Shown piece by piece: positions 4,783 to 62,768 of a stretch of DNA of 64,000 bases. The position numbers and the translations under genes are program-made. The stretch spans positions 28,336,001 through 28,400,000 of the forward strand of contig OZ076409.1 in NCBI GenBank assembly GCA_964187785.1, written 5' to 3'. Every line of letters starts with the position of its first letter. Position 1 is the stretch's first letter. The notes beneath the pieces were generated by a model. That model had not been told where the DNA came from, did not search any database, and saw only the letters and a list, made by a program, of their open reading frames with translations. The DNA comes from Amphiscolops sp. MND2022. Taxonomy: Eukaryota.

Positions 4783-5873
4783 CAGGGTGGCCACTTTGCC
4801 CCCAAATTTGGGGGCACCCCCAAATGCCCCAAATTGCCCCCAGCATAATTTTAACCCCCAAATAAATGTATCGCTTAATTTTTTAATGTTTTCAGGTAGT
4901 GATGGGTGGAGATTGCAAGTTTACGAACAACTTAAGCGAGAAGTTTGCTTGGGGACTGCGCATTCCGGGACTTGACCATTCAGTGCGCTGCAAATATTGC
5001 AATACAGTGGTCAAAATTGCACGAGGATTATTTGCATTGAAACAACATGAACAATCGGCGATGCACAAGAAGAACATGCCATCAACCTCGAGCCGTACTC
5101 CAAACATTGCCGCGGCGCTTTATACGAGTTGCAGTAAGGAGACCGGCGTGCTGCGTGCAACTATTTATCATTGCTTGAAGATCATCGTGGATGACGCAAG
5201 CTTTAGATCCAGCGAATGCTTTAGTTGCAATCGGTCACTTTACAAGGTGATGTTCCCAGATAGCTCCTTTGCTGCGATTAATTGTGGGAAAACGAAAACG
5301 GGATACATCATAACGAGAGCGATAGCCCCATTTGTAAGAGACCAAGTCACCGATAAAATCACTTCCTGTGACCGTGTGGGTATTCATATGGATGAAGAAT
5401 GCGAAGTTCTGAAAGCAAGAAATCAACGTGTGGAGTCTCAAGCTACAGTTTTTCGTGACGAATTCGATATATACAAACGGCGCACACCATGTGAACTAAA
5501 AAGAGAATTAAAATCTGTCGATTCTGAAATTGAAAGAACACAAGCTTTGTTAGAGGAGCTGCATTCGAAGAAGAGCCGATTATCCTCGGAGACAGCATCT
5601 GCCAACTTTCTTGCGGATTCACAGTCGAGTGACGTGATCGCTAAAATGTTCAAAAACTGAAAAAAGGGATGAATTTTATATGCTTCATAAGTTATTTGAA
5701 TAACTTAATGTTATGCTTTTATAAGATATCATTCCTCTAACCTGTTGTTTTCAAGTACTTTCAACATGCCACGGCATAATGATATTTATTAACCATGATT
5801 TCCGTTAATTTTGTAACATTTCAGATAGATTTGCATCTGCCCCCAAATTTGAAATTTTGAAGTGGCCACCCTG
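4783..5873 (+). mobile_element. Internally deleted hAT DNA transposon (1091 bp)
   Basis: TIR CAGGGTGGCCACTT / AAGTGGCCACCCTG; perfect 8-bp TSD TCTGCAAT (4775-4782, 5874-5881); subterminal GCCCCAAAT repeats. Confidence 0.92.
4899..5660 (+). CDS. Truncated hAT transposase: BED zinc finger and N-terminal part fused to a C-terminal coiled coil
   Basis: W...RCKYC...LKQHEQSAMH BED-type finger, MFPDS...CGKTKTGY motif and first catalytic strand GIHMDE, then an abrupt switch to a coiled-coil tail. Lies inside the hAT TIRs. Confidence 0.75.
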   Translation: MMGGDCKFTNNLSEKFAWGLRIPGLDHSVRCKYCNTVVKIARGLFALKQHEQSAMHKKNMPSTSSRTPNIAAALYTSCSKETGVLRATIYHCLKIIVDDASFRSSECFSCNRSLYKVMFPDSSFAAINCGKTKTGYIITRAIAPFVRDQVTDKITSCDRVGIHMDEECEVLKARNQRVESQATVFRDEFDIYKRRTPCELKRELKSVDSEIERTQALLEELHSKKSRLSSETASANFLADSQSSDVIAKMFKN

Positions 5874-11689: not shown

Positions 11690-12044
11690 TTGAGTTTTAA
11701 ACAAATCGAAGGTAACTGAGTAAATCAAGTTCATTCGAGGATTGGGGAAGAATTGTGTACTTTCCTAATNNNNNNNNNNNNNNNNNNNNNNNNNNNNNNN
11801 NNNNNNNNNNNNNNNNNNNNNNNNNNNNNNNNNNNNNNNNNNNNNNNNNNNNNNNNNNNNNNNNNNNNNNNNNNNNNNNNNNNNNNNNNNNNNNNNNNNN
11901 NNNNNNNNNNNNNNNNNNNNNNNNNNNNNNNNNNNNNNNNNNNNNNNNNNNNNNNNNNNNNNNNNNNNNGAAAGTACACAATTCTTCCCCAATCCTCGAA
12001 TGAACTTGATTTACTCAGTTACCTTCGATTTGTTTAAAACTCAA
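11690..12044. repeat. 75-bp perfect inverted repeat flanking a 200-N assembly gap
   Basis: 11690-11764 is the reverse complement of 11970-12044; Ns at 11770-11969. Confidence 0.9.
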
Positions 12045-42600: not shown

Positions 42601-45600
42601 TTTTAATTGTCATTGGTGGAACTAAGAAGCACGACGTTTGATTAAGTTTAAATTTTGTTTTTCTAAATTAGAAACGGCGTATTTGTGGATAAAGTACCAA
42701 ACATCTATCCACTTTTGTATTATTCATTCAAGGTGGATCTATCAATACGTAATCACATCTTCAATTGATGTTGTTCAAATATCGGAAACAATTCCACTAA
42801 AATGCTCGAAATGCTCTAAAAATGCGTGACAAATACCTCAAAATGCATAAAAAGTTGCGTGAAAATCTCAGAAAAAACACGCCGCTGAAGAGGGAAAATT
42901 AAATATTCCGATGATTTATTCAATCAAATGTTTCTCCCATTTGATAACCAAATGATGTTTGAAGTTTTCAACTGCACGATTTCTTCTTTTGAGGCTGAGG
43001 GGATCATCCATAGATGTAACACGGTTTTCAGAAATAACGATAGTGTTTCAATTGAAATGCGGGAAAGTTGTTCGAAAAATCAAAACGTTGCGTGAAACGA
43101 TAATTGGCCAAAATTGCGTAAAAAGTTGCGTTATATCTTTACGCAACTTTTTCTTGTCCTTGATGTTGTTACAAATTTTCAGAAAAAGTCGACATCTTCA
43201 CAAATTCTTTCAATCTCAGTTTCTGTTTATGGCAGGTACTTCTTTGAACTTGTTTTGAACTTTTTGGATTACGCAATGCGAATCAGTTAGACTTTTCAAT
43301 AAGTGAAAGAGTCGATATTATAGAAAATCTGAAATGCAGGATACCCTTTTTGGAAAAAGTACTGACAAAATTGAGCCATCTTGATATGCCAATTCAGTTT
43401 TAATAATTCAGATATGCCAATTCAGCATTAAGAATTTTGTTGGGATAACCACCATCTTTGTATATATATCAGCTTTAGATATCAACAGGTTGAACATGGT
43501 GTAAATTGGGGGTTTTGTTGAAAGTCGCAGCGTAGATACTCCTGAAGAATTGTGGCATCTCGAAAAGCCAAGGGTTCAGGCTTCTCGGGCAGATTTTGCA
43601 GAAAAAAAATCGTTTTCAGGAGCACTAATATTCATTTCAGACCGTAATTTCAAAGTGAAACCAGCTTCAACCAGTTTCTTGGAACTATAGTACAACTATT
43701 CGAATTCACTGGAATAAAACCTGGAACCCATAAAACATCTCGGTCTTATTCTAAGCCGTTTTCAAGATTTTGAGTGGTTTTAAACCATATTTCTTAAATT
43801 TTTACATTTTATTTCGGTAATATTAGATCTTTTCATTTAGTTCCAATAATTTTGAATGTTATTCCAATGATTTTGAGATCTTATCCTAGTGGGCTCAAAA
43901 CCGTGGTACAAGGTACTTCAGGATATCATTCAAGCATCTTCGAATCTTATTCCAGTGATTTAAGATGTTGTTCCAGTGTTTTTAAAAATTATGTTTCTGT
44001 GGTTTTAGATCATAGGGCATCAGTTTTTGGATTCCATGTATTCCAGTGAATTTAGACTTCAGTTTGTCTGAAGATTGAGTGATTTTCAAGTTTCGATGTT
44101 TTGATATTGTTTTAGATCTTTGAGAATCTTCTGTGTGTATTTGAACCTTTCTGTGTTTTCAGGTACTGCGAGATTTTTAAAGCTTACTGAATTGTTAATC
44201 GTGATCATGTTTGAATTTTTTCAGCTTTAAGCGGGACACCGACTTGCGTCTTTCTTCGCCTGTTCAATTTTTGTGTAAGAAGTACTTGATGAATTTTAAT
44301 TACTTTAAAAAGATCTTTACTCACCTTTTAGTGCGAGAGTTGACCACTAGTCGAAAAATCATTAGGCAGTTTAAAACAATCATTACTAGTCCAGGAATGA
44401 ACGTCATGAATATTCTTCGTACCAAAATGATTAGTAGCAGACCCCGAGAAGTGAGCCAGTTGGCTGGGCCGAAACAATTTGGATTTTGGCCCATTTCGTG
44501 GAGAAGAATGAAGGGAGACGCCGTGATGACAGCAAGCGCTACACCTCCGCTTGACACCTTGTTGGCATTGGAAATGGTCGCGTGTACTTTGTACTTGAAA
44601 GGAAAGTAGGTGGCATAAAATCTGTCAATTGACAAGATGACAACCAGGTTCAAAGATGCTGACGTTAAAACGTAGAACACTGACAGTTGGATTTTGCAGA
44701 CCACATTTGAAATGTTTTGGTGCTGCAGCCATGCAAACGTTCCAGAAGACAGCTCGAAGGAGTTCCCCAGCAACGCTGACATATCGACAATTGACAGCCA
44801 ACAGATCACTACATACCCTGAAAGGTTGAAGTCCGTCCACTGAGAAACTTCAAACAAAATGTTGACACTAATTCTCACAAAAAAATCACAAAAATACAAA
44901 ACATGCCCAAAAATACAATCCTCTCATCAATTAATTTTTATGAGCAACCTTTTTTCAGTCAATTCAGTAATACTTGTTTTGGTTCGAACTACAGCTCTCT
45001 TTCTAGTAACAGATGAATGCAGTACATTGCGCAACTCAACACTGCAGCTTTCCCAATTCCAGTGTTGGAAGATTGGGTTAACGTTTGCAAGATTTTGAAG
45101 ACATCCTTGTGGATTCAATTTATCAATTCTTCGGGATTCTCCTGAAGAAACAAATTTCTCTCAGTTGGCATTTTCCCACAATTTTCCATAGTTTAATTCT
45201 ATATTGACGTACGGCGACAACTCATATCAAGCGACAACTCAAATCAAGCGATAACTCATATCAATCAAAACTCATATTAGAAAATTGAAATCAACGTAGT
45301 TGAAATTGATTTCAAATATTTCATTAGATCATAAAGGGAAATTATTAGTTAGTTAATTGATAAGTAGCTATAAGAAATTATGAAATAGTTACAAGATTTT
45401 ATCGTGAACATCAATGTAATGGGTAATCACTTTCTTATCACACCTTCATCCATAAGGGTTCCAGAGAAAATTGTCAGCAGAGTGCATGAAATGCGAAAAA
45501 TTTCCGAAAAAACTTTGGAAGTTCTAATTGCAGCTAATTATGGAATGCTGTTGAAGTATAATTTGGGTATTTCTTACATATTGGCATACCTGATATGACA

Positions 45601-47595
45601 TATGTCATATCAAGTTTGAAAAACTCTCAGGTTTCTATATATCAGGTTTCTTAATATCAGGTTTCTATTACCATTGAAAAATTCTCCAAGAAACGGTATA
45701 TCCAATATGCATTATATCCGGTATTCGTTATATCCGGTTTATTTCAAATCCGGTATGGGTTGCTAGCTGTCGAACCCAATGTAAGTTACTCCTTTAAAGC
45801 TCAAAAGAGACTTTGCCAAAATTGCAGAATTTTTGGTATAACTACTTCGAACAGTTCAGGTGTATCGAAGAAAAACTGACAAAAAGTCATGACTATAGTC
45901 GATTTTTTTCTAAAGAAAAGCGCCGATTAGAAAGCGACAGCCGAGCTTTCTCAATTAATATGAGTTATCGCTCGCTTGAGTTGTCGCATTTTCAAATTGA
46001 TATGACTTGTCGCCTAATATGAGCTGTCGCTTTCTAATCGAAGAATAATCGAATCGTTAGAAAAAAGCGACTATAGTCATGACTTTCTGTCAGTTTTTCT
46101 TCGATACACCTGAACTGTTCGAAGTAGTTATACCAAAAGTTCTGCAATTTTGGCAAAGTCTCTTTTGAGCTTTAAAGGAGTAACTTACATTGGGTTCGAC
46201 AGCTAGCAACCCATACCGGATTTGAAGGAAACCGGATATAACGAATACCGGATATAATGCATATTGGATATACCGTTTCTTGGAGAATTTTTCAATGTAA
46301 ATAAAAAGGTCGTTCCGAATTTTAGGACATTGAGAATTGATACAAAATGATTTCAAGAAAAGGGTCCCCTTTTTTTGGTAGCGAGACCTTATTTTTTCAA
46401 CTTAACCAATCGTTTCCAGAAAAAAATGATGTGAAAAAATTTCAAGTTTCAAGTTATGGAAAATGCGGTTTTCGAGTCTTTTGGGTATGCCTTCGGGTAT
46501 TTTCGGTACTGTAAGTTTGAAACAATTTTTTTTAAAGCTCCATTTTTGGCACATCTTCAGATGAAAAATTGTCGAAAAATATGAGTTTTGTTGTTTGCAG
46601 TGTGCGAGAAGTTGTTTTCGAGCTCCTTCGGGTATTTTTCGGGACTTGGAAAATGATTGGCAGCATTTGTATTTATAAATATATCCAAACTGAAATGAGC
46701 GCAATATTGTCAAAAACTTTGCGCTATTTGAGCAGGTGTTGAGGGTTTTCCTTGGCATAGTTTGATGGCTTTCTTGCCTTAAAATTATGTTGATGTCAAG
46801 AAAATTCGTTGTTAAAAATACTCCGTACTCAGCGGGCGTTTTGGTGCTATTTTGACTGATAAACGAAAAACTCGTCAAAAGCAAGTAATCCAAATTAACG
46901 GGCGGAAACCCGTCGAAAATTGACTCCCTGAATTTTAATTAATTACAAACTCGTCGAATAATTGCCAATTAATCACTAGCTGTCAGTAACCCACCAGAAA
47001 AGCATTTCTCATGAACTTTTCATGGCAAAGTGATACTTATGGAATAATTTTCCCTAATTGAAGCGTGCTTTATTTACGCACGATATATTTTTTGTATGTA
47101 CGCACAATATGTGTATAATTGCATGAAATGACTTACTTTTACAATTTCAAGTCTAATATTAGTGTTTATAATGCAGTTTCATCACGAAGTTGGCACTATA
47201 CTTAACGGAGAAATTTACTATAGTTTGCGAGGAGTTTTCCGATGTAGTATTTCTGGCGAGTTGCTTTTCGACGAGTTTTCTGCCTTGTATTTTCGAGCAG
47301 TTGTTTTTGGCGAGTTGTTTCCGACGAGTTTTCTTAGATTCATTTTTGACAAATTGGTAATTGGAACTGTTAACAAGAATATTGGTGAAAAGTAACCTGC
47401 TTTCTTTTTCTTCTTTACAACTGTGAAAGAAACTATAAACTGAAGTATATTGCCAATTATTCCAAGCATTTCCAGCACCAACATGAAAGGGGTCGCGTAG
47501 GGCAATAAACGATGAACTATTGGGAAGTTTTCCCGCAAAATATCGTCGATTTCAGTGAAACTTGCAGTTGAATTTCCTATGGCATCCATATTCAT
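39635..47595 (-). CDS. Rhodopsin-like (class A) GPCR, paralog 2; exons 47595-47397, 44817-44325, 39911-39635; 322 aa
   Basis: GT-AG introns in phases 1 and 2 give 969 nt in frame. TM1 GN, TM2 LSIVD, TM3 Cys and DRF, ECL2 Cys, TM7 NSSGNP, helix-8 FRDNL. Collinear with paralog 1. Confidence 0.88.
39932..40353. mobile_element. HINE-like element copy in GPCR2 intron 2
   Basis: SubTIR AGTCGGCGC (39938) / GCGCCGACT (40325), stem-loop agtcg...cgact, terminus cccggcttgtt. Confidence 0.7.
41445..42504 (+). mobile_element. Deleted hAT element with a C-terminal transposase remnant
   Basis: 41786-42325 encodes LPKLYSLAR...TSATVERSFSLYGKILLTERR...EETLSQL, a hAT dimerisation-domain motif. Candidate short TIR CAGAGA(C/T)AC; TSD degenerate, so the ends are uncertain. 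Confidence 0.65.
43820..44170. repeat. Degenerate minisatellite-like TTAGATCTT.TTCCAGTG array
   Basis: Repeated short motif; the same family occurs at about 48780-49330. Confidence 0.5.
45672..46297. repeat. Near-perfect inverted repeat with arms of about 241 bp (45672-45913, 46057-46297)
   Basis: Arms are reverse complements with few mismatches. The inner ends carry the HINE-like gtcatgactatagtcg motif also present at 39965-39980. Confidence 0.9.
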
Positions 47596-49789: not shown

Positions 49790-50438
49790 ATGAAAACATC
49801 CAGTGCATATGCAGAATGAGCTGGCAATGGCGGGAAAACATGATGCCACTATGGAAGAAATCAGGAAATTCGTGCAACGCAGATGTCAGTATGCACAACT
49901 CCTCCCGAAAACAACTAATGCACAACCGTTCAACCAAATGAGTGCACCCCATCCGAATGCAGCCACACCTCAGGCATCAACGGCCTAATCCCAGCAAAAC
50001 AGGGAGACGAAAAGAAAGTTCGACGGGCAATGCCGTCACTGCGGCATACATAGACATAAATGGGTGGAATGCAGGAAACGGCTGCGAGAAGAAGCACAAT
50101 CTAAACCCGCCAGCCAGAAGCAAAAACAACCACCCCAAGCCACCCAGAACCCAGACAATAGACCCAAATATAACTCAAAGCTCGTGTATCAAATTTGCGG
50201 AAAGGTGGGACACTCTGCCCGAAACTGTTACCACAGGAACACGACCACGTCAGTTTACAAAAGTGTTCCGTATACTAAATAGTCAACGGAAGAAAACAAA
50301 CAATTCAGAAGGGACTTTAGACAAAACAACTACAGAGTCTACACAACCAGTGAGCTGTCCCACACTGCTGACAACGAAATTAACGACAATGAAAAAATGG
50401 AACAACACGATGACGCGGAGGACCCAAAAAACTTCTAA
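49790..50438 (+). pseudogene. gag: Ty3/Gypsy gag, 3' part (5' truncated), with two zinc knuckles
   Basis: CRHCGIHRHKWVEC and (Y)QICGKVGHSARNC CCHC motifs; in-frame stops; ends DPKNF* at 50436-50438. Confidence 0.85.
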
Positions 50439-53400
50439 AGCCACGTCATCCAAATCCACCAAACAAAAGTGCGCACCAAAATCAACGACTACCGACTACT
50501 ACTCAAAAACGAATAACAACTCAAATTTACACTGGTTGGCAGTCCCATCCTTCAACCTATACTAAAGAGACTACAAACTTTGTCATCACAAGACATTCCA
50601 CTGACAACTATACAATCAAACCAAAAGAAATGAAACGAAGACCCGAAGCCAGCAACGTAGAACCAGTGCGTTAAGACGACACACTACCCAACCAAACTAC
50701 CAAACGATGACAAACAACCCACATCTCCTAAACCTCACAACCCGCCGAAGAAACCAAAATACGGAATCCGACAATTGAGCGCCACATTGCAACACAACAG
50801 AAAGGACAAGATAATATATGTGCCTCTTCAAATTCGTGAGTACGAAAATTTTGGTCTTCTTGACACTGGCGCAATCCAGAGTGCACTGTCGGAAGCAGAA
50901 CTCCGGCGAATTCTCTCAGCACATCCAGCCGCCCTTCTCCAAGAACTCCCTGCCCCAGAGTTCAAGGTCCAGATCGCCAATGGCAGCATCGTACCCGTCA
51001 GAAAGCAGGTGTTACTACGATTCTTCATCGGCGGCAAAGTCTTCGAATAAACATTCATGGGTCTCCTCACTCTGGGAACTGTTTTCATCGGAATGTCATT
51101 CTTCAAGAAGTATTCAGTAACCCTGGACTTAACCAACAACATAGTAAACTCTCCAGACATCACCCGCCAACTACGCTCAGTCAACGGAAAATTCAAAAAT
51201 AAACTAGTTGAACTGAAAACGACTCAGAAGATGGTGATCCAACCCAACCAACAAGTGTTCGTCCCAGTGGTAATTGAACGCGACCTTGGAGACATCACTG
51301 GCACCGTCGAAGGTATACCCACCTTCGAGAGACGTACGCACCTACTGGTATCTCCGGCTCTCAGCGAGACCCGGGAAGATCGAGCCCATGTGCAGATCAC
51401 CAAACCACTGGATTACCAGATTATTATCAATGTGGGAACAGCAGTGGCGTTTTTCAAGGTATTGACTCCAAAACAAGCAAACAATCTACAACCGATTACA
51501 AATCACCAACTCAACCTGATCACGCATTACCCAGACGAGGCCACAGCAGTTTTGAACCACTTCTTCCAGGACCCAAATGAAAAAACAGACAAAAGATGGT
51601 ACCCCACCCCTGAGACATGCGACGACCCGTCAAAGCTCAACATGATTGAAAGACGCATCTACGACAAGATCGTCAAACTCAGGGCGGAAAAAAATTTGGA
51701 CCCAACATCAAGTGAAGAACAACGACAAGAATTCTTGGCGAACTTCCAGTGGAAGCAATCAATACTGAACCTTCATGAGAAGCAAGAGATTGAAGCACTA
51801 TCGGTCAAGTACCACGACATCTTCGCAAGACACAGACTGGACATCGGGATCAACACCGAATTCAAATTAAAACTGACTCCCAAACACGACGAACCAGTTT
51901 ATGCCCAAAACTTTCCCACACCAACAAATTTGAAGGACGATTTATTGGTAGAATTGGCGCTGATGCAAGAGTACGGTATAATCACCACATTACCATATAG
52001 CAAATACTCTTCGCCTATCTTCGCCAAACGCAAGCCAAACGGAAAACTTCGAATCCTTGTCGATCTCAGAAGAATTCATCATTTACTGAAGAATGATCAC
52101 AACCAACACAACCACCCTGTGACAACGATGGCCCATGCGGCACAACACATCGCTGGCAAGCGTTACTTTTGCAAGTTGGACTGTTCACAGGCGTACCATT
52201 GCCTTCAGATAGCAGATGAACAGTCAGTCCAGTTACTTGCGTTCAACTTTGGAAGTAGAACCTTCGCCTTCCTCAGATTAGCCCAAGGATTGAATCGGTC
52301 TCTGTCAGCCTTCAACAGTACAGTTCGCGAGCACTTGGACCCCTTGGTCAAGGCGGACAAATGCGCCCAATACTTTGACGGTATCGGCATTGCCGCCAAC
52401 ACTGTCGAAGAGCTACTCAACAACATTGAAGCAGTATTTACCAAAATCAGACAGGCCGGTCTGAAGCTGTCATTGGCGAAGTGTGCGTTCGGTCACCCCG
52501 AGATCGAATTCCTTGGAAGAAGCCTCACTACCATAGGCATCGCGCCCATCGAAGAGAAAATCGACAATTTTCTGAAGAACATCAAACTGTCGACGTCCGT
52601 GAAGTCACTACAACAGTATATTGGATTCGTACAGTTTTACCGCCAGTACATCCCGAGATTAGCTGAGAAACTGGTTCCTCTATAAAAGTTGTTACAGAAA
52701 GACGCCAAGTACGAACTCACCCAGATCCACAAGGATGCAATATTAGATATCAACGAGATCTTAGCAAATGCTGTCAAGATGTCACTGAGATTACCCCTTC
52801 CAGACAAACAGCTAGTGATAATGTGCGACGCTAGCGAACACGCAGCCGGCTACGTTCTTCTGATAGAAGATTACACCGTACCAATGATGGACCAAGGAAG
52901 TCATATGCACCAGTAGCCTTTGGATCTCAAAGGTTCACCGAGGGCCAAATGTCACTCACGATGTACGCGAAGGAGTTCCTGGCCATGCACTTCGCATTTG
53001 ACGAGTTCGCCCATATTTTGTGGGGAGTGAAGAAACCAACAATTGTCATGACTGATAACAAGGCACTCACCAGATTCTTCCAGTTCAAACGCATACCACC
53101 AAAACTGTGGAATTACTGTGACCAGGCCCTCCAATTCGATTTTGTCCTGGCCCATGTACCTGGTGTCGAAAACCTAGCAGCCGACTACCTGTCCAGAATC
53201 GACATCCACCCGAAGGACAGAATTCACCTCAAACTACATGATGAAATACCAGTCTTCACAGTCGAAATGGATCTGGCTTCGAGAACGCCCAAACAGGATG
53301 ATGAGGAAGAAGAATACATACCAGACAAGACGGATGTGCCCGACACAACAACATCACCAAACCCAACAATGCAGTCACTCGTGGCGATGTTCCCTCAATG

Positions 53401-55280
53401 GTGTCACGAAGACGACGACCAGTACCGTAGACGCATTGACGACATCAAGACCCAGGTGCAATCGTTTGTGACGCCCTCTGACCCAACACTGTTCTCCACC
53501 CGATTCTACCAACGGAACCAGATTCACACGTTAAATCAGGTATGCCCTTCGGGGAATTCAGAAATTGTTATGTCTCAAGGCGAAAATAGTGATGTCCAAC
53601 GGGTAATTAGGATCAGTACTGTGCAAGAAACCCCTCCAAACCAAGTTAACTTTGCAAGTAGCTTTTTCCAAAAACTCTTCAAAAACCGTAACTTGAAGTC
53701 GTGAACAACTTGCTGTACAGGCAGTTTTGTGACAATGTAGGAAACTTAGCTTACCGACAAATTGTAGTTCCTCCAGAAACTACGGAAGCCATAATCAGTA
53801 CGATGCATGGCGACCCCACGCAGGGACACCCTGATCTTCAAAAAAGTTAGGTGAACTCAAGAAAAGGTACCACATCCCGAACCTAGCCGACAAAGTTCAA
53901 AGGTTTGTTAACAACTTCCAAGACTGTATTAAAGCAAAACCTGTAAAACCCAGCTCGGTAACACCACCACTCGAACCAATCTATGACCCCTGCAACGGTC
54001 CAGAAGATGTCCTTGAAATCGATTTAGTTGGTGAGCTACCACGATCTAATGGGTACTAAAACATCCTGACTGCATGCAATTACTTTTCGCGATATCTGTT
54101 TGCCAGTCCGATCCGTAAGCTTGATACCAAATCTGTAGTAGAAGCACTGATTGACATGTTCGCGAAACGCGCCTATGTGCCGAAACACATTATAACAGAC
54201 AAAGGGTCGGCATTCACATCGAAAGTCATAACAGAACAGATGGACAAAGCCGGAATCAAAATCTCACCCGCGATAATCAAACTTGCCCAAACTATTGAAA
54301 TGATTGAAAGGTCGCATCAACGTTTGAAACAGATTTCGAAAATAAACGTCTCCGCAGACCGACCACAGTGGGACCGATTCGTCAACCGCGCTGTGATGGC
54401 GCACAATACGACCTATCACCAAACTATAAAATGTGGAACCACCAAACTCAGATCACCGAGGAACGTCACGGATACACAGACGTTAGTGGACAAAATGAAC
54501 GCCAAATTCAAAGAAACTCACACCAATATAATCCGAGCCTTCCATAAGTACAAAGCGTACTATGACCGAAAAGCGCAACCATCACCACTAAAAGTAAACG
54601 ACATTGTCTTTTTAGTGAACCATAAAATTGGCACGTATTCCTAAAAAATCCCTTTCAACTCTTGCAAATGGGAAGGGCCTTACAACGTTGTTAAAGTTTT
54701 GACACAATTGAACTATATCATCAGAAAAGTCGGTACCTTCAAGACGCAGTGTGTACATAGAATGCGACTGCGCCCATTCGTGCCACACACAAGATCGAAG
54801 ACGTAAGTGACGACGTGAACCGACATTATAGTGACCCCGACGCAATTGGCGATCAGTCAATATTCAACAATAATCTGCCTGCATCCGAACAATCATCGCC
54901 GGCTGAAAACACATTCGAACTCGGCACAAACGAAACTGAAACAATCGATTCTGAGCACGGATCATTTTATGATGAACACAAACGGGTTCATGAGGTACCA
55001 CCTCTGTCTAACCCGCTGCCTGAGGCCATCCACACCGACCGTACGTACCGAACTGAAACTGAAATTCAATCCGACGAACCAGACATACCACTGCCATATC
55101 ACGAATCTGAGCAACAAATTCAATCAAATTATGTACGGCATCGACCACATCATCCGTCGAAACGTCTGCACCGATCACACGCAACAATATTACCAGATAT
55201 AGCCTTCGGGGGGCACCTGTGCCTAAAACGTTTGATAACTTCCTTGTTCATGAACTGCAAGCAAAGCCCGCATTTTTAAA
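50429..55280 (+). pseudogene. pol: Ty3/Gypsy pol (PR-RT-RNase H-IN), disrupted
   Basis: Protease LLDTGA; RT SSPIF..RKPNGKLRILVDLR, KLDCSQAY, YFDG (degraded YxDD); RNase H CDAS, KEFLA, TDNKAL, ADYLSR; integrase IDLVG, TDKGSAF, IERSH, WEGPY. Domain order is Gypsy-type; several stops and frameshifts. Confidence 0.95.
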
Positions 55281-56545
55281 ATTCATGCAACGCAAATCTG
55301 CAAGCCAATAGAAATTTTATGCATCCAATCAAATGTAACCTACACAACTACATGTAACTACCAACATGAAAAAACTTTTCAGTGACGACTGACACTCACT
55401 GTCATAGACACTAGAGAGTACCGGCAGAATAACATATTACTCTCTACCGAGACAACTGAGCAAAAGGTAAACATATGCAATGTAGCTGCACTCCCCACAT
55501 CACTACATGTAACTTGCTGTTCCACTCTCTTCCGAAGCTGAAGGAATTAAAATCTACATGTAATGCTGCAACGCACACCACATTATCGTGACCGAAAATT
55601 AGAAATTCATGTATTCAACAAGAAACTCAGACACTAATTTATTCAGTTCACGGGAAAATCAACGCAAGCAAATAAAAGGGATCGCTCAGCAATCCCGATC
55701 GAAACAAACAGAATCAGAAGCTTCCTGCAAGCAAAACAACAACAAACACTCAACAGTAAGACGCAGAGAAAACTGAGCTGCCTCACGAACGTTACACCGT
55801 CTGAACTTAACTTGTTGTCACCGGAAAAAAGAAACTCATGTGGTGTGGTTAGCTACGTTCAAAATCAGATGAAGCTGTGCTTCCCGGGGAATCCGATGAC
55901 ACAGTGGAATATAAGTTAGTTTTGAATAGGTTTTGTGACGACAAAACCTTGTCCCGAAAACTTGAACTTTTAACAGTAAAGCAACGACAGTAAAAAGCAG
56001 TCGTCACACCTCTTCCGACTTAAAAGTCGTGAACGCCTTGTTCTTCCTGGTGATTCGTAGGCTTCGCCTCGCGTCAGAAAGTGCTAGGTACAAGCATATC
56101 AACCACCAATGGACATGGGTTACCCATTTCCCATTTATTGACCTTTAAAAGAGGACACACGTCACGAGTGATGACGTCACATGACACACATTAGCGACGA
56201 CGATGTCAAGAATGACATTTATTTCACGAAGTATACATGCATTATACACAAAAAAAGGGTGTATAACAGATGTAAAACATGTAAATTCACCCACGAAAGT
56301 GAACAAAACTCAAAAACAGTTCAGTAAGGTCACATGTAACAAACCGGCATGGCAATCAACAACTAGTATCAAATAAACAAAAAGTACTTCCAAACTAAGA
56401 GCACAGTAACACCAACCAGTATACATCATTCAAAAGAAAAAAAAGAGTCCAAAACTTTCCAACAAACAAAAAATGTATGCATCAGGACCACATGTAATGA
56501 TAACAAGCCAATAAGTTCCAACACGGTGCAGTTTTCATCTATAGT

Positions 56546-59500
56546 TTAATCCCCTTCTCCAGACGAATCGACCTGGCTGTAACTAGACCGTTTCTTCCCC
56601 CCAGTCACAATATCTTCACTAAATGAGCCATCATCAGAATCCGTAACGTTAGCAAGCTTTAGAATTTTTTTCCTCTGGGTACCCCTCCGGTTCGTTGCCC
56701 TCTTGATTGACGATCACGTCCACTACCACGACTCGTTGAAGGAGTACTGAGGGACTGTTTTTCTTCGGAGTCGACTTGCGACCCCCTCGAACAGACCGAA
56801 CAGCAGCGGAAAGACTAGCCGCGAGAGCAACATCACTTTGAGGCCGCCAACCTTTCTAAGCAGACTTACCACGTGCGACGACGGGACTACTGCGAATTCC
56901 GGGGCAAGGTGGGCTCATCACTTCAACCAAGTCAAGTTGTGCTAATACATGCGAACGATAATCATCTACACGAATAGTCGGTGGAGCAACCAAGTCACTC
57001 GTCAGTATCGCATCTCCCAATGACAGCGCCTCGCCTAGCCCAGATTTGAGGAGTTGGTTCCACGATTTAGACCTTGTTTCGTTCATTAAGCGCGACACTT
57101 GCGTATCGCTTGTCTCACACACACGTAGCAGTCCAGTGAGGGTCCAAAGAATACGCCCCGCGAAAGACTTAGTGAGCCAGCTCCGAACGAAGTGCAAACT
57201 GGACCGTAGGGTATCGGCTGGCATAGAAACGTCCATGTCATCCACAAAGTCAGGTTCATAGACTCCAGTAACAACTCTTGACATTGTGACCAGTAACGAT
57301 AGGTAAGCCATAGTGACATCACATCGTCTATCACAGGGGCACTCTCGCTCAAGGTCCACTTCTTTTTGTAGAATTTTGCCACTTCTCGGTATTGCCTCAA
57401 CACAACTATGGAATTATCATCGTCTAACGGAGTAAGCGAATTATCATCATCAGCTGGAACGGAGTAAGGGTAGCGCACGTTTCGACCAGCGCTTCGATGC
57501 CGCGATCATCGGATCCTTTATATTTTAGTTCAGGGTCCAAATGAATCATACTCAATTGACCGACGACTCCTCGTTGCCACGTCTCATCAATCTCTCGACA
57601 AATAACTCCAAGTAGCTTCTGAACAGATGTGTAAAAGAAACGCAATTGAGCCTGCACATCTGCACATCGTATCGGAAGTATTGACCGAAGTGCAGCTTAT
57701 ATAAACTCTCATCAACTGCCGCATAGTCGGGAATGGCGGGTGGCGTATAAACAAAACAAAGCAACTTGGGGACAAATTGCGACAGCTTACGCTCTGCTAG
57801 TTTGTTGCTGTCCCTACTACATATGGACATCCGTTGACAAGTTTCAGTCACTGTAAACACAACACAGAACCAGTAGAGGAACACAAGTACAAATCCCCCT
57901 TAGATCAGACATCCAAAAAGGTGTCGTTAAATCTTATTAAACAATTTTCGCCCAAGCCCACCTACAAAAAAGGAGCGATAAATTTCCGACGCAAGCAACT
58001 TGTAATACTAACACAAATCTAAAATCAGACCCAAGACAGCAAATCGGGGGCGCATCATGACATCATCGAAGATTTGTCCTTCAATAGGAGTCACTAGGCG
58101 TAGTTCTGACGTCACATTTGGCCGATGAGTGCCGAAGTACACGGCAAAGTCGTTCCAGTACTCAACAACTTCCACACACAAAGCATAACCACATCGCTGC
58201 CTCCAGAACGAATGAACTGAAACAACGTAAATATCAATCTAGCAAGACCAGAAGCACACTGTAGCTCCTAAATACTAGGCTTAAAAGAAGTTTCGGAAAA
58301 AGAAAAAAAATTCCCGATTAATCCATGTCCTATGATGATCCACATCTCAAACATCATAAAAACTACTTACTCGTCTTAATTGAGGCAATCGGTTCATGAA
58401 GCCTTCTTGCACAACCGAAGACAATCGCACACGCCAATACTCTAAGACACTCAGTGGGTCCAAACCACCAAACTCAGCCAAGAAAAGTTTCCGCACCAAG
58501 TCCAATAGCCACATTTGTGTCACACGGCCAATCACTTGCGGATCACGGACCCCAATCGCTGCAGCTAGAGCGTATCCGATACGCGTGTCACACTCCGTAC
58601 TGTATTGCCTGATATTTGCTGAATGTCGTAGTAAAACAGGCATGACATTAGACAGCATCCGTGATTCCCAGCCAGTCCCTACTGATACCACAGCGAGTAC
58701 AACTGATTTCAAGGTCAGGTCTCCAATCACTTGGCACTCACAAAACCATTCAACATTGTGCCGTCTGATACTGATCCCAATGCTTTTGCCTTGAGCTAAA
58801 AGACTGTCTAATTGCTCCACAACGAATCGGTACAGCCCGTATAGAACAAGACTCTGGTAACACAAAAGCAGATTTGATTAGACTTACACGCCCACGTCAA
58901 CACCCCAAATTCCGCAAACTCAAACATCGAACGTTACACTTAATTTTCCCCCCCTCATTTACGTCCTACTGAGTCATTGCCCGGACACCTAAAATTAGAA
59001 GTAAAGCGAAGCATATACCTGACATTTAGCATAGTTAAGGGTACGGCATTCAACGCGTAGTTCCGAATTGAAACCGTCTCGCCAAGACTCCACCATGCAC
59101 ATGACGTCACCGAATGAATTGGGCCTGCAGAAACTGGTTATAAACCGACCTATCCACAAAAACGACACACTTTCTGCTGACAAGGAAGGCCTCTCACCAA
59201 CAGACGCTTCGGCTTCCTCTATGGCGACTCGCTCGTCGATGGTTAAACTCAACTCGGACACGAGGAAGGCTGGCGGCTCTGTCATTATCGCTTGTCGAAT
59301 TCGTCGATATTCTTGTGCAGTGACCGGACGACAGGCTTTGTCCAGAAGTGGCATCCGCATCATTATACGGTACTTTTGTTCGAGGCGCGTTTGCTCCACA
59401 CCCCGCTAATGCTCCCAAAGTGAAGAAAGGCCTCGTCCAGCGATACTCAAATCTGCCTTGCAGTGCAGACACCTCGCGTAGCCGTCCACAACGCGCTTAT

Positions 59501-60936
59501 GACGCGGAAAGCAAACGAAAGTGCCGACCACGCCGGACACAAAGTAGGAAGGCTTCAATGTCTTTTNNNNNNNNNNNNNNNNNNNNNNNNNNNNNNNNNN
59601 NNNNNNNNNNNNNNNNNNNNNNNNNNNNNNNNNNNNNNNNNNNNNNNNNNNNNNNNNNNNNNNNNNNNNNNNNNNNNNNNNNNNNNNNNNNNNNNNNNNN
59701 NNNNNNNNNNNNNNNNNNNNNNNNNNNNNNNNNNNNNNNNNNNNNNNNNNNNNNNNNNNNNNNNNNCACCACGTGGTGTTATTTGACGATTTGTTTGAAA
59801 CCACGGACCGCGAGCAATCGAAAGCACTCGGCACATCTGACAATCGACTCACACTGGCAGCTGCAGAACCATGAACGGAAACAGGACTGCCGGGGACTTC
59901 AAGCTGTACAGAAGGCGCTGCCACAATGATTTGATCAGCCCCACTTTCAGAAGGCAACGTGGGAACCGTGAGCTGCTCCATTGCTGTCTTCAGTTTCTGA
60001 ATGAAGTCCTCAATAGACAACGCTCCTACAGGACCCAATTCAACTAACTTAGCATCGACGACCGCCTTTACCGTCTCCGACAACTCTTTGGTCACACGCT
60101 GGACTAGAGCTTGTAACTCTGTCTTAGTCACAGGCAAACCAGCAGAAGTACCTACAGCACCCAATTTTGCCTACCTAATGTTATGTACTACCTTACATCC
60201 AAGATTCAACAGTTTCAACAACGACCGACGGACTGAGCCCCCTTCCAAGTAGTAACAATATCGACTTACCAAGCTGACCCGGAAAGATACGAACTGATCA
60301 GTTCCTCAACACTTCCGTCTGGCAATCCAATCGACCCAGGAACACGTCTGGAAGCCAGAAGTTTACGGAGCAATTGCAATGTGTCCACCAAAGCTAACTC
60401 TGCTGCAACACAAACGATGGTCTCTTAGCGACTACATCAGTTATCCAGAGCATTAGTTCCCGGGAAGTATAAATGCACTGATGCTGGTACCGCTCCTATA
60501 GCGTGCCGGTATAATAACCAACCAGAATGGTCTGATGGACAACAAAATTTTTAGACGGCTCCTGATCAGAAGTAATAACTGAGGTGTCCAAGAATGGCAA
60601 CACCGGCTCCAACAAATAACCTATCTACCCGAAAAAAAAAACAAAAGTTGTGAGATTAGCAGAAGAAAACGTGTACTCACTGAATTCACTTGATAACGCT
60701 GTCTCCAGCAGAGTATTAGCAGACTCGTCATTAGCAGCAGTAACCTTGCCGGCGAATCGGCAACCCATCTTCGAGACACCTTCTCTCAGAACTTCATCTG
60801 CAGCAGTTGGTAACTCACTGCCAACCGAAGAGAAACTAAACGGTTCGAACTCAGCAAGCACACCTTCCGCAGCTAATACAACCGACGCAACATCTGCATC
60901 AGTCTGAGGAGGTCCCTCTTGTGACGGCGAAGTCAT
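56546..60936 (-). pseudogene. Multi-exon antisense gene encoding a BED-finger, hAT-transposase-like protein (disrupted in this copy)
   Basis: Chain of minus-strand ORFs with GT-AG junctions: donors at 60680, about 60269, 59018 and 58370; intron 59018-58854 joins KCQ|SLV in phase 0; acceptor before 60957. Finger RCLHCKADLSIAGRGLSSLWEH; later CVEVVEYWNDFAVYF and LSLLVTM...DTLRSSL. Contains a 200-N gap. Confidence 0.6.
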
Positions 60937-61488
60937 AAGTAACAATAACAAGCCAGTCTGAAAAGAGAAGAAAAGTTGAGACTATCCAACTAGAAGCATA
61001 TAGTCGTTTGCGATTTACTGAGATTCAAAGTATTTTCTAACCATCTTGTGGACTGATCACCCGCTTTATCCTTGACAAAAAGCTACCTCAACGTTACAAA
61101 GGAACCACCCGGTTCCCGAAAATCTATCACTTTCTATTCCAAACCAAAGGGACAAATGTAACCCAAAAAACCATAGTTAAATCACATCCGACTCCCTAGC
61201 TTAGCCTACTTTTAGCCCACTTGATCATCAGTACCGTTACTCAGTAAGCCGCGGTCGACCGAAACTGTCTGATTTCCAATGACAATTGTAATGAAAAATT
61301 AATCCTGTTCGTATTTGGCAACGACAAAGAAGTGTTTACAAAGGGCACAACACTCCACTACATTCAACTTCCGAACAATTACCGAATAAGCCGAGTAATT
61401 ATATTACGCTGCCACGTTAGATTAATTTCCGGCGAATTCACTCTTACCTTAACTCTCTTTTTGAAAACAATGCGCACGACTGGATGAC

Positions 61489-61782
61489 GTGGCTACCCTC
61501 GCCACATCAACTCTATATTTACTCTTTACCGATGTGGAACACTCAAAGCGCGACTACGATTTCTTCCTCTCGCTTGCCAAATCCGAAAAACAATGTGGTT
61601 GCTATGACAACATCACTGCTATCTCCAATCACCGAATACAGCCGAATTCAACTTTGCGAATCGGAATGCAGCGTCCAATCTCTCCCACAACGAGAAAGAA
61701 AAGCTATTCGCCATCCCCGTCACATGTTCTCTTCCAAAATAGACCCGGAGTGTCATGTCTGATGCATGAGAACATCGAATAG
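61489..61782 (+). other. Short sense-strand ORF remnant before the putative 3' LTR
   Basis: 97-codon open frame with non-ATG start and no recognised domain; coding status uncertain. Confidence 0.25.
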
Positions 61783-61860
61783 AGATGTGGTTAACTGCAC
61801 AACATCCAAGAAACGAAACAAATCGACAGACAATACGGGAGAGCAAACGAAGGAAAAGAA

Positions 61861-62768
61861 TGTAGTTAACCCAACCACATCATCAAACCTGAAACTCAAA
61901 ACTTGCATTTACACCATTTATATTTAGTTTTCAAATAGCATTGCTCTTTCTCAACCATAATCATACAATTTCTACGTGTACCTTCCAAAAACAATTTCAT
62001 TATACTTTACATGATGTGGATGACACACCATCATCAGATTTCACTTTAATGCAGTTAGCCATGTAAACATTACTTATATAATCATTTAGTCATACGATGA
62101 TAGTAGAATAACCACATTGCAGTGCTCTACGAATATACCAATTAGTGAGTCATGTAACCATATTAACGCAAGTACATTATATTTCAGTGCAGTATCGAAC
62201 TTAAACTCAAATTGCGCAATTACCAGTTGAAGTGTGAATCTACACCACCAAAATGCTGCAATACTATTGGTCGATGTGGTCACGTGACCAACATCGACAT
62301 ACTCAATAGCAGGTACGAAAGTGCCACCAGAAGAATGTGAAAAGATATTACGTAGAGCTGCTAACCACATTAGTATCTAGATATTACCAGTCTCAACATT
62401 CTCGATTTATCCTTGCTATTTTCAACAATCAATGAAACTTTCTAACTCTATGTTTTCCTTTTTGGTTAATACTAGATCTCAAACAGCCAGAAATACTTCA
62501 TCGAATATGAAGGGGACTGATAGATATAGTGATACCGAGAGCGAAGGTAGTGTTCCTGAAGTATTGACAAGAAATCAAATGAGAGAATTTGACGATGGAA
62601 ATTTGCTACACAGTAGAAATGAGACTGAACGTCTGACTGTAAACCAAAGGTTCTCAGAAATGAACAAACAAATAACCGAGTTAACGAATCTAGTTTTGGT
62701 ACTAACGGAGAAGCTTTCCTCTAGCAAAAGAGAAGGGAACGACATTGGACATGATACCCGTTCCGACA
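61861..62768 (+). mobile_element. Putative 3' LTR of the Gypsy element, including a gag-like start
   Basis: Purine tract GAAGGAAAAGAA is followed directly by TGTAG at 61861 (alternative start TGTGG at 61786). Ends CGTTCCGACA at 62768, where the gag-like frame VNTRSQ...HDTRSD loses its coiled-coil character. No 5' LTR in the window for comparison. Confidence 0.45.

Follow-up and report, generated by a model that had tools for sequence, protein, structure and literature searches.

The 64,000-nucleotide stretch analysed here (the window; positions 28336001-28400000 of contig OZ076409.1, Amphiscolops sp. MND2022) contains a decayed Gypsy element that carries, between pol and its 3' long terminal repeat (LTR), a gene on the opposite strand. 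Judged by its sequence, the element is a Ty3/Gypsy LTR retrotransposon with an antisense accessory gene, and it is neither a hAT transposon nor an active hAT transposase. The gene is conserved across the family in seven exons and very probably descends from a hAT transposase. We give an even chance to the fuller proposal that a whole hAT transposase has become a putative non-cutting, DNA-binding activator or de-silencer of the element that encodes it. Homology searches were made across the 1.07-Gb assembly.

Linkage of the antisense gene to a Gypsy family

Copies were gathered with both DNA and protein searches, the protein match counts being lower bounds. The DNA search returned 63 matches, and the protein search at ≥70% identity gave at least 150 scored matches to exon 4 and at least 129 to exon 7, so this is not a single-copy gene. 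Full copies of the first of two clades measure 14.0-15.5 kb (n=10; the family overall is given as 14-16 kb), in agreement with the original prediction, made from the window alone, of an element larger than 13 kb. Six young copies of 15.2 kb have LTRs of about 1030 bp that are 99.1-100% identical within a copy, TG...CA ends, 5-bp target-site duplications (TSDs), a primer-binding site and a polypurine tract; four diverged copies have paired LTRs that are 93-98% identical. Paired TG...CA LTRs were present in all 13 copies with flanks, taken from both clades (93-100% identical within a copy), and a 5-bp TSD in 12 of the 13. The gag gene precedes pol, and an unbroken pol of 1651 amino acids reads as protease, reverse transcriptase, RNase H and integrase by Pfam.

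The gene and pol travel together, as had been proposed. All 40 first-clade loci selected by the antisense gene lie in an LTR-element context, 35 adjoining pol and five keeping LTR or spacer parts, and no free-standing gene was found among them. When loci were selected by integrase instead, 16 of 19 carried the antisense gene (one as a 23-residue remnant only), and the remaining three are truncated or internally deleted. The longest inverted arms in four regions include no pair of terminal inverted repeats (TIRs) flanking the gene, which agrees with the earlier failure to see any; the TIRs and 8-bp TSD of a hAT element were thus not found around it. Identities of the integrase and of the antisense gene are uncorrelated among copies (rho 0.09, 325 pairs, 26 copies), indicating that the gene has been swapped as a cassette between pol lineages. 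The corresponding trees are discordant (loci L030-L101): one pair of copies shares 94% of its integrase and 55% of its antisense gene, another 69% and 88%. The antisense-gene tree was built with FastTree from 26 of 30 rows, L039, L046, C9a and L090 having been dropped. Three rearranged copies were also noted, with an inverted duplication of exons 4-7 (L032), a tandem duplication of exon 4 (L047) and a tandem repeat of the integrase/exon-7 region (L129).

In one natural copy the gene comprises seven exons, 3381 nt and 1126 codons with no internal stop, and six GT-AG introns of 126-274 nt in phases 1, 1, 1, 0, 0 and 1. The acceptors of exons 4 to 7 fall on the predicted base in 29 of 32, 33 of 33, 37 of 39 and 37 of 37 copies, counting only copies whose exon matched end to end, at protein identities down to about 45%. 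Intron sequences across subfamilies are 39-57% identical, as against 40-52% for shuffles; since splice sites are fixed while intron sequence is at the shuffle level, splicing of all six introns is predicted from conservation. The minus-strand gene originally noticed downstream of integrase is real in outline, and its junction at 59018-58854 is a 165-nt GT-AG phase-0 intron. Its proposed extent to 61450 was too long: coding starts at 60936, and the GT near 61450 is missing from some subfamilies and lies within a conserved non-coding block. This block, which has a TATAAT-like box and is situated between the polypurine tract and the ATG, is likely the antisense promoter.

Substitution patterns indicate that the gene is under purifying selection. 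Twelve pairs compared between subfamilies differ at 0.68-0.86 of synonymous sites (pS), which are near saturation, and at 0.08-0.31 of non-synonymous sites (pN); where dS is finite (four pairs) dN/dS lies at 0.048-0.085, and two close pairs give 0.15 and 0.21. Within the otherwise variable basic tail of exon 7, the motif RRTGG.P is kept in 20 of 23 copies (window about 56690-56670, minus strand). The C-terminal TGGK motif is similar to the histone H3 tail; it has no match in the PDB. No annotated full-length homologue of 778-2220 amino acids was found among 3914 candidates, which is weak evidence.

A decayed Gypsy element 3-13 kb to the right of the window end also has minus-strand open reading frames (ORFs) after pol (L029:2867-10000, L102), and belongs to a second clade with 150 scored matches among those listed. 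The integrase of this clade is about 43% identical to that of the first, its antisense gene adjoins integrase in 33 of 34 loci, and its LTRs are paired in all three copies with flanks. The antisense proteins of the two clades align over 640 columns (hhalign 84%, E 7.8e-6), and their genes share the positions of the last three introns. Canonical GT/AG was found at 208 of 215 scored second-clade sites. An extra intron of about 90 nt in the equivalent of exon 6 is present in 18 second-clade copies and cleanly absent in 15, where the coding sequence is contiguous across the site (L122-L141 compared with L138 and L148-L161). Because the first clade lacks it too, gain of this intron within the element would be the simpler reading. 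Its presence or absence among related copies documents how introns change, in nature, within a gene copied through RNA.

Probable hAT ancestry and catalytic columns of the antisense protein

The hAT reference was a 140-sequence alignment built from proteins found by the profile of a hAT ORF in the window at 4887. The finger (window 59409-59475) scores 16.4 bits against Pfam zf-BED, below the cut-off of 20.6, and its exon scores 34.8 against the hAT profile, with controls at ≤19.3 (hhalign). The C, C, H and H of the finger are kept in 18-19 of 19 first-clade and in 27 of 27 second-clade sequences. The likeness extends past the finger: once the finger exon is removed, the two-clade profile scores 57.1 against hAT over 270 columns (87%, E 3.6e-6), the maximum among 41 shuffled or reversed controls being 26.0 and an integrase decoy reaching 18.3. 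At E<0.05 the same profile finds 13 of the 140 hATs and none of the 140 reversed sequences. With the finger included, the match is collinear over 577 columns from finger to C-terminus, and the 270-column match takes in a helical insertion domain that follows the CxxH/RW region. For the first clade alone, exons 5-7 score 39.5 over 228 columns, with column shuffles at ≤22.4. Whole-gene block shuffles that kept finger pieces reached 34.2, and this control was redone without the finger exon. The C-terminal dimerisation region aligns collinearly with low confidence and has no Pfam Dimer_Tnp_hAT match.

The signal comes from the wider ZNF862/ZMYM1-like hATs (52.0). The resemblance originally drawn between the finger and a hAT transposase at 4899 in the window holds within the finger; beyond it, the score of 15.8 is at chance. 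The window's hAT family (4887/4899), represented by a six-sequence profile, was accordingly set aside as donor. Of the C-terminal features pointed out earlier, the EYWNDFAVYF helix and DTLRSSL are both in the coding frame; 'LSLLVTM' is an off-frame reading produced by a frameshift and falls in a non-coding frame of an unbroken copy. ZNF862/ZMYM1-like hATs (Pfam DUF4371 and Dimer_Tnp_hAT; Hermes as structural model) share with the antisense protein a BED finger, an RNase H-like core, a helical insertion and a C-terminal region in the same order. They differ from it in that the present protein lacks the DDE triad, CxxH and RW, is longer by about 260 residues at its N-terminus, ends in a basic tail, is not bounded by TIRs and has been moved by reverse transcription.

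Predicted structure is consistent with this ancestry past the finger. An AF2 model of exon 5 from a 23-row alignment reached a pLDDT of 74, the best of five models (42-74), and has an RNase H-like topology of three strands, helix, strand and helix. Foldseek placed RuvC first and Hermes second (E 2.9e-3), with integrase also among the top matches. A single-sequence fold of exon 7 had a pLDDT of 37 and was set aside; the full domain arrangement rests on profiles and the structure model covers exon 5.

The catalytic motifs had been reported as absent, and a column-by-column check bears this out. In the hAT alignment the D, D, C, H, R and E columns are filled as expected in 135, 136, 137, 138, 139 and 106 of 140 rows. 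In the first clade the first Asp column holds R, F, H or S (0 of 24 acidic), all 24 have Glu at the second, and E occurs in 7 of 22 at the Glu column, or in none under an alternative placement. No conserved C or H was found within the first-clade CxxH zone, and the RW column reads D/E-V/I in 31 of 31. Second-clade sequences have Glu in place of the first Asp (27 of 27), mostly Gly in place of the second, and A or P at the third column. The end of exon 5, which hhalign also pairs with the RW helix, was considered for the RW position; the start of exon 6 is preferred because it lies 60 residues from the CxxH zone, compared with 62 in hAT. DDE and CxxH are described as required for hAT chemistry in the available part of the source (PMC4763223). 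The DDE triad, CxxH and RW are thus not kept, and the protein is likely non-cutting, as far as residues at aligned columns can tell.

Role of the protein and competing explanations

A hAT gene would have inserted antisense into an ancestral Gypsy element, and its TIRs and catalysis would then have been lost. The antisense orientation hides the introns from splicing of the genomic RNA, and they are copied intact; packaged genomic RNA would hold them as unspliced reverse complements, allowing introns to persist, to be gained or to be lost. A promoter beside the polypurine tract would drive a spliced mRNA, and the protein made from it would bind motifs repeated across the non-coding DNA of its own element and stimulate sense transcription, as VANC and TnpA do in DNA transposons. 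Coming from a separate mRNA, such a protein would have no packaging link to its own RNA, so the strong selection on the gene seems best explained by action on the DNA of its own family. Sequence evidence places this role of activator or anti-silencer at the midpoint between likely and unlikely. Candidate targets exist: ACCACAT occurs 61 times in 32 kb of first-clade non-coding DNA (1.9 per kb), 12 times in 132 kb of flanks (0.09 per kb) and once in 23 kb of the second clade (0.04 per kb). TACATGT is also enriched in first-clade non-coding DNA, and the second clade has other 7-mers.

Several points weigh against this account, from the ancestry of the protein to its putative targets. With the first clade alone, a 25-column block shuffle reached 37.0 against the observed 39.5. 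No Pfam hAT domain reached its cut-off in the antisense protein, PDB sequence searches with three antisense queries gave no matches, and the only transposase superfamily among the donor profiles was hAT. Foldseek returned no match to the exon-5 model at E≤0.001; VIA-align gave Hermes a Z of 5.2-5.5 (root-mean-square deviation 4.3-4.4 over 101 residues) and unrelated RNase H-like folds up to 7.0, so the modelled fold by itself gives no preference to hAT. The catalytic columns were positioned from short anchors and a low-confidence alignment, and the remaining invariant acidic residues may leave some metal binding. The enriched 7-mers were chosen after the fact from copies that are related to one another, and ACCACAT is absent from the L103 lineage. 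We take these motifs to resemble host RUNX and forkhead sites, and they may be sites for host factors.

Other explanations share part of this evidence. The protein could act at integration, tethering the pre-integration complex to chromatin or carrying it into the nucleus. Such a part would suit a transposase scaffold that bears a BED finger and ends in a basic tail, and nuclear import has been proposed for plant antisense ORFs (PMC7264820, in the part available). However, no common target sequence was found in ten first-clade flanks, and a target-site preference seen in two of three second-clade copies vanished when nine more flanks were added. The free reassortment of the gene relative to integrase is a poor fit to a fixed protein partner; together with the lack of a target motif it weighs against an integrase partner, and we consider this role unlikely. 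Kept DNA binding and lost catalysis fit equally well a repressor that limits its own element or serves as a dominant-negative decoy against active hAT transposases, and young hAT families do exist in this genome. Yet beyond the finger the protein bears no likeness to the genomic hAT family tested (15.8), and the retention of the gene in 16 of 19 loci would be harder to explain by a benefit shared in trans by all copies than by one directed at the element itself. Repression is, by a hair, the less probable of these two. It is distinctly improbable that the protein is a Rev/CERV-like factor that binds structured genomic RNA for export or packaging. Inverted arms in the post-pol spacer (55382-55403 and 55986-56007), 520-580 nt apart, are conserved in three of four regions and the tail is arginine-rich, but the spacer folds no better than shuffles (z -1.2) and BED fingers are described as DNA binders (PMC10368747, in the part available).

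The donor may instead have come from another DDE superfamily, or have been a hAT-derived BED-finger gene of the host, rather than a mobile hAT transposase. The Hermes structural ranking is weak, Atlas gave best scores of 0.80 and 0.78, which are leads only, and its leads below 0.9 include RAG1, Plavaka and Transposase_21. The genomic hAT ORFs examined are, moreover, single long frames, whereas the antisense gene has introns. Against such a donor stands the collinear hAT match from finger to C-terminus, and the extra intron of the second clade shows that introns can change within the element; the alternative is very unlikely. Slightly less probable still is a rearranged nuclease or metal-binding activity. 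The invariant Glu at the second Asp position and further invariant acidic residues in exons 6 and 7 would allow it; the acidic position that is retained differs by clade (the second Asp in the first clade, the first Asp in the second), and CxxH and RW are gone, hAT chemistry depending on CxxH and DDE (PMC4763223, as above). The decay of the window copy would fit a neutral nested hAT insertion hitch-hiking in a retrotransposon, a reading that is refuted by dN/dS of 0.05-0.09, the absence of TIRs and the occurrence of the gene in two clades at 43% integrase identity, and that retains almost no probability. The antisense gene is a selected accessory gene and not a nested insertion. With every gene-selected first-clade locus in an LTR-element context, many copies, and hAT-like sequence and fold past the finger, its capture as an accessory gene of an LTR element, as first suggested, is supported.

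Antisense ORFs between pol and the 3' LTR have been described in Grande (gene23), RIRE2, Retand (TRP28) and Boty (PMC7264820 and PMC11963269, in the parts available). As those texts present them, these plant and fungal ORFs resemble the present gene in being antisense, in lying between pol and the 3' LTR of long elements, in occurring in most copies of a family and in having been proposed as nuclear regulators. They differ in that their origin is reported as unknown, with no similarity to other transposable elements (same sources), and the accessible text of the Retand paper does not contain the word 'intron', whereas the gene described here has six conserved introns and traceable homology to a whole transposase. 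The present antisense gene gave no match to TRP28. In Arabidopsis Copia elements, spliced antisense transcripts are described as non-coding in the available part of the report (10.1101/2024.04.02.587720). The closest functional parallels would be TnpA of Spm, reported as transposase-derived in a preprint on transposases as sequence-specific activators (10.64898/2026.08.24.746577), and VANC, which binds repeated motifs in VANDAL (PMC5735166). Both, as far as these partial texts go, are sequence-specific self-regulators encoded by transposable elements and directed at repeated motifs in the element's non-coding DNA; BED domains, likewise, are described as binding subterminal repeats (PMC10368747). 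TnpA and VANC serve plant DNA transposons, whereas here a retrotransposon would use a transposase of another class, with a putative activity; the words 'retrotransposon', 'LTR' and 'gypsy' do not occur in the preprint's main text, as available. The plant mobile domain is likewise an accessory domain shared by LTR and DNA transposons, namely Gypsy and MULE elements; it differs, according to the accessible text (PMC5418596), in being a separate domain exchanged with host genes and not a transposase itself. In the literature searched, which lay outside Repbase, subscription journals and supplements, no LTR element was found to be described with an antisense gene derived from hAT. Plant Gypsy elements are known to carry accessory ORFs in this orientation, and derivation of one from a whole hAT transposase would apparently be new.

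For and against are evenly balanced on whether an LTR lineage domesticated a whole transposase as a spliced, catalytically dead and sequence-specific activator that diversified in two clades, gained introns and moves as a cassette. If it did, this would be domestication by another class of transposon and not by the host, and the route from transposase to regulator would extend across transposon classes. Where the antisense accessory ORFs of LTR retrotransposons come from, and what they do, are described as open questions (PMC7264820, in the part available). The present gene can be traced to an enzyme family with solved structures, and with a finger and candidate motifs in hand its function can be tested.

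The window copy and its surroundings

The Gypsy element in the window (49794-62768) is decayed and consists of a gag remnant, pol in seven pieces (67-90% identical to the pol of a full copy), a spacer, the antisense gene, a polypurine tract and a 3' LTR. The 5' LTR and the 5' part of gag are absent from this copy, and no LTR repeat was found in the window. The antisense coding region runs from 60936 (ATG) to 56546 (stop) in seven exons and is interrupted by a 200-nt N gap at 59567-59766. This copy is dead, with a stop in the finger, a frameshift in exon 6 and ten stops in the exon-7 match. Its features, and the hAT copy used for comparison, are as follows.

4887-5660, plus strand: separate hAT family, internally deleted copy (comparison only; longer ORFs elsewhere)
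49794-50435, plus strand: gag 3' remnant with CCHC knuckle (tblastn against full-copy gag, 71%, 2 stops)
50426-55308, plus strand: Gypsy pol (protease, reverse transcriptase, RNase H, integrase) with stops and frameshifts (Pfam RVT_1, RT_RNaseH, rve)
55309-56545, no strand: non-coding spacer from pol to the antisense stop, with conserved inverted arms and repeated ACCACAT motifs
56546-57850, minus strand: exon 7, hAT-like insertion domain, last RNase H helix, dimerisation region and basic disordered tail; frameshifted in this copy
58013-58216, minus strand: exon 6, RW position (D/E-V/I) and next helix; frameshift in this copy
58371-58853, minus strand: exon 5, predicted RNase H-like core (AF2, Foldseek); open in this copy
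59019-59566, minus strand: exon 4, CCHH BED finger and linker; stop within the finger, 5' end lost in the N gap
59767-60151, minus strand: exon 3, extending into the 200-nt N gap
60270-60402, minus strand: exon 2
60681-60936, minus strand: exon 1, ATG at 60936; ATG and phase-1 donor common to subfamilies
61300-61545, minus strand: conserved non-coding block upstream of the antisense gene, TATAAT-like box near 61400 (alignment of nine copies from different subfamilies)
61735-61750, plus strand: polypurine tract
61751-62768, plus strand: 3' LTR (TG...CA), about 65% identical to the young-subfamily LTR

The gag frame starts within the LTR (window 62381-62768; locus L024), and the 3' LTR thus repeats the first approximately 100 gag codons. 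The hAT ORF at 4887 has no Pfam hAT match itself, and its profile finds proteins with Dimer_Tnp_hAT. This hAT family (window 4887-5660; L050-L073) is young and is missed by Pfam; it has about 30 near-identical copies whose ORF length is very variable owing to internal deletions, and in which RF replaces RW. Two minus-strand stretches of the window, 44321-44923 and 47218-47595, hold ORFs that by eye resemble pieces of G-protein-coupled receptor genes. Long, near-perfect inverted repeats (97%) at 45662-46307 (247-nt arms) and 11690-12044 (177-nt arms, spanning an N gap) are possibly fold-back elements.

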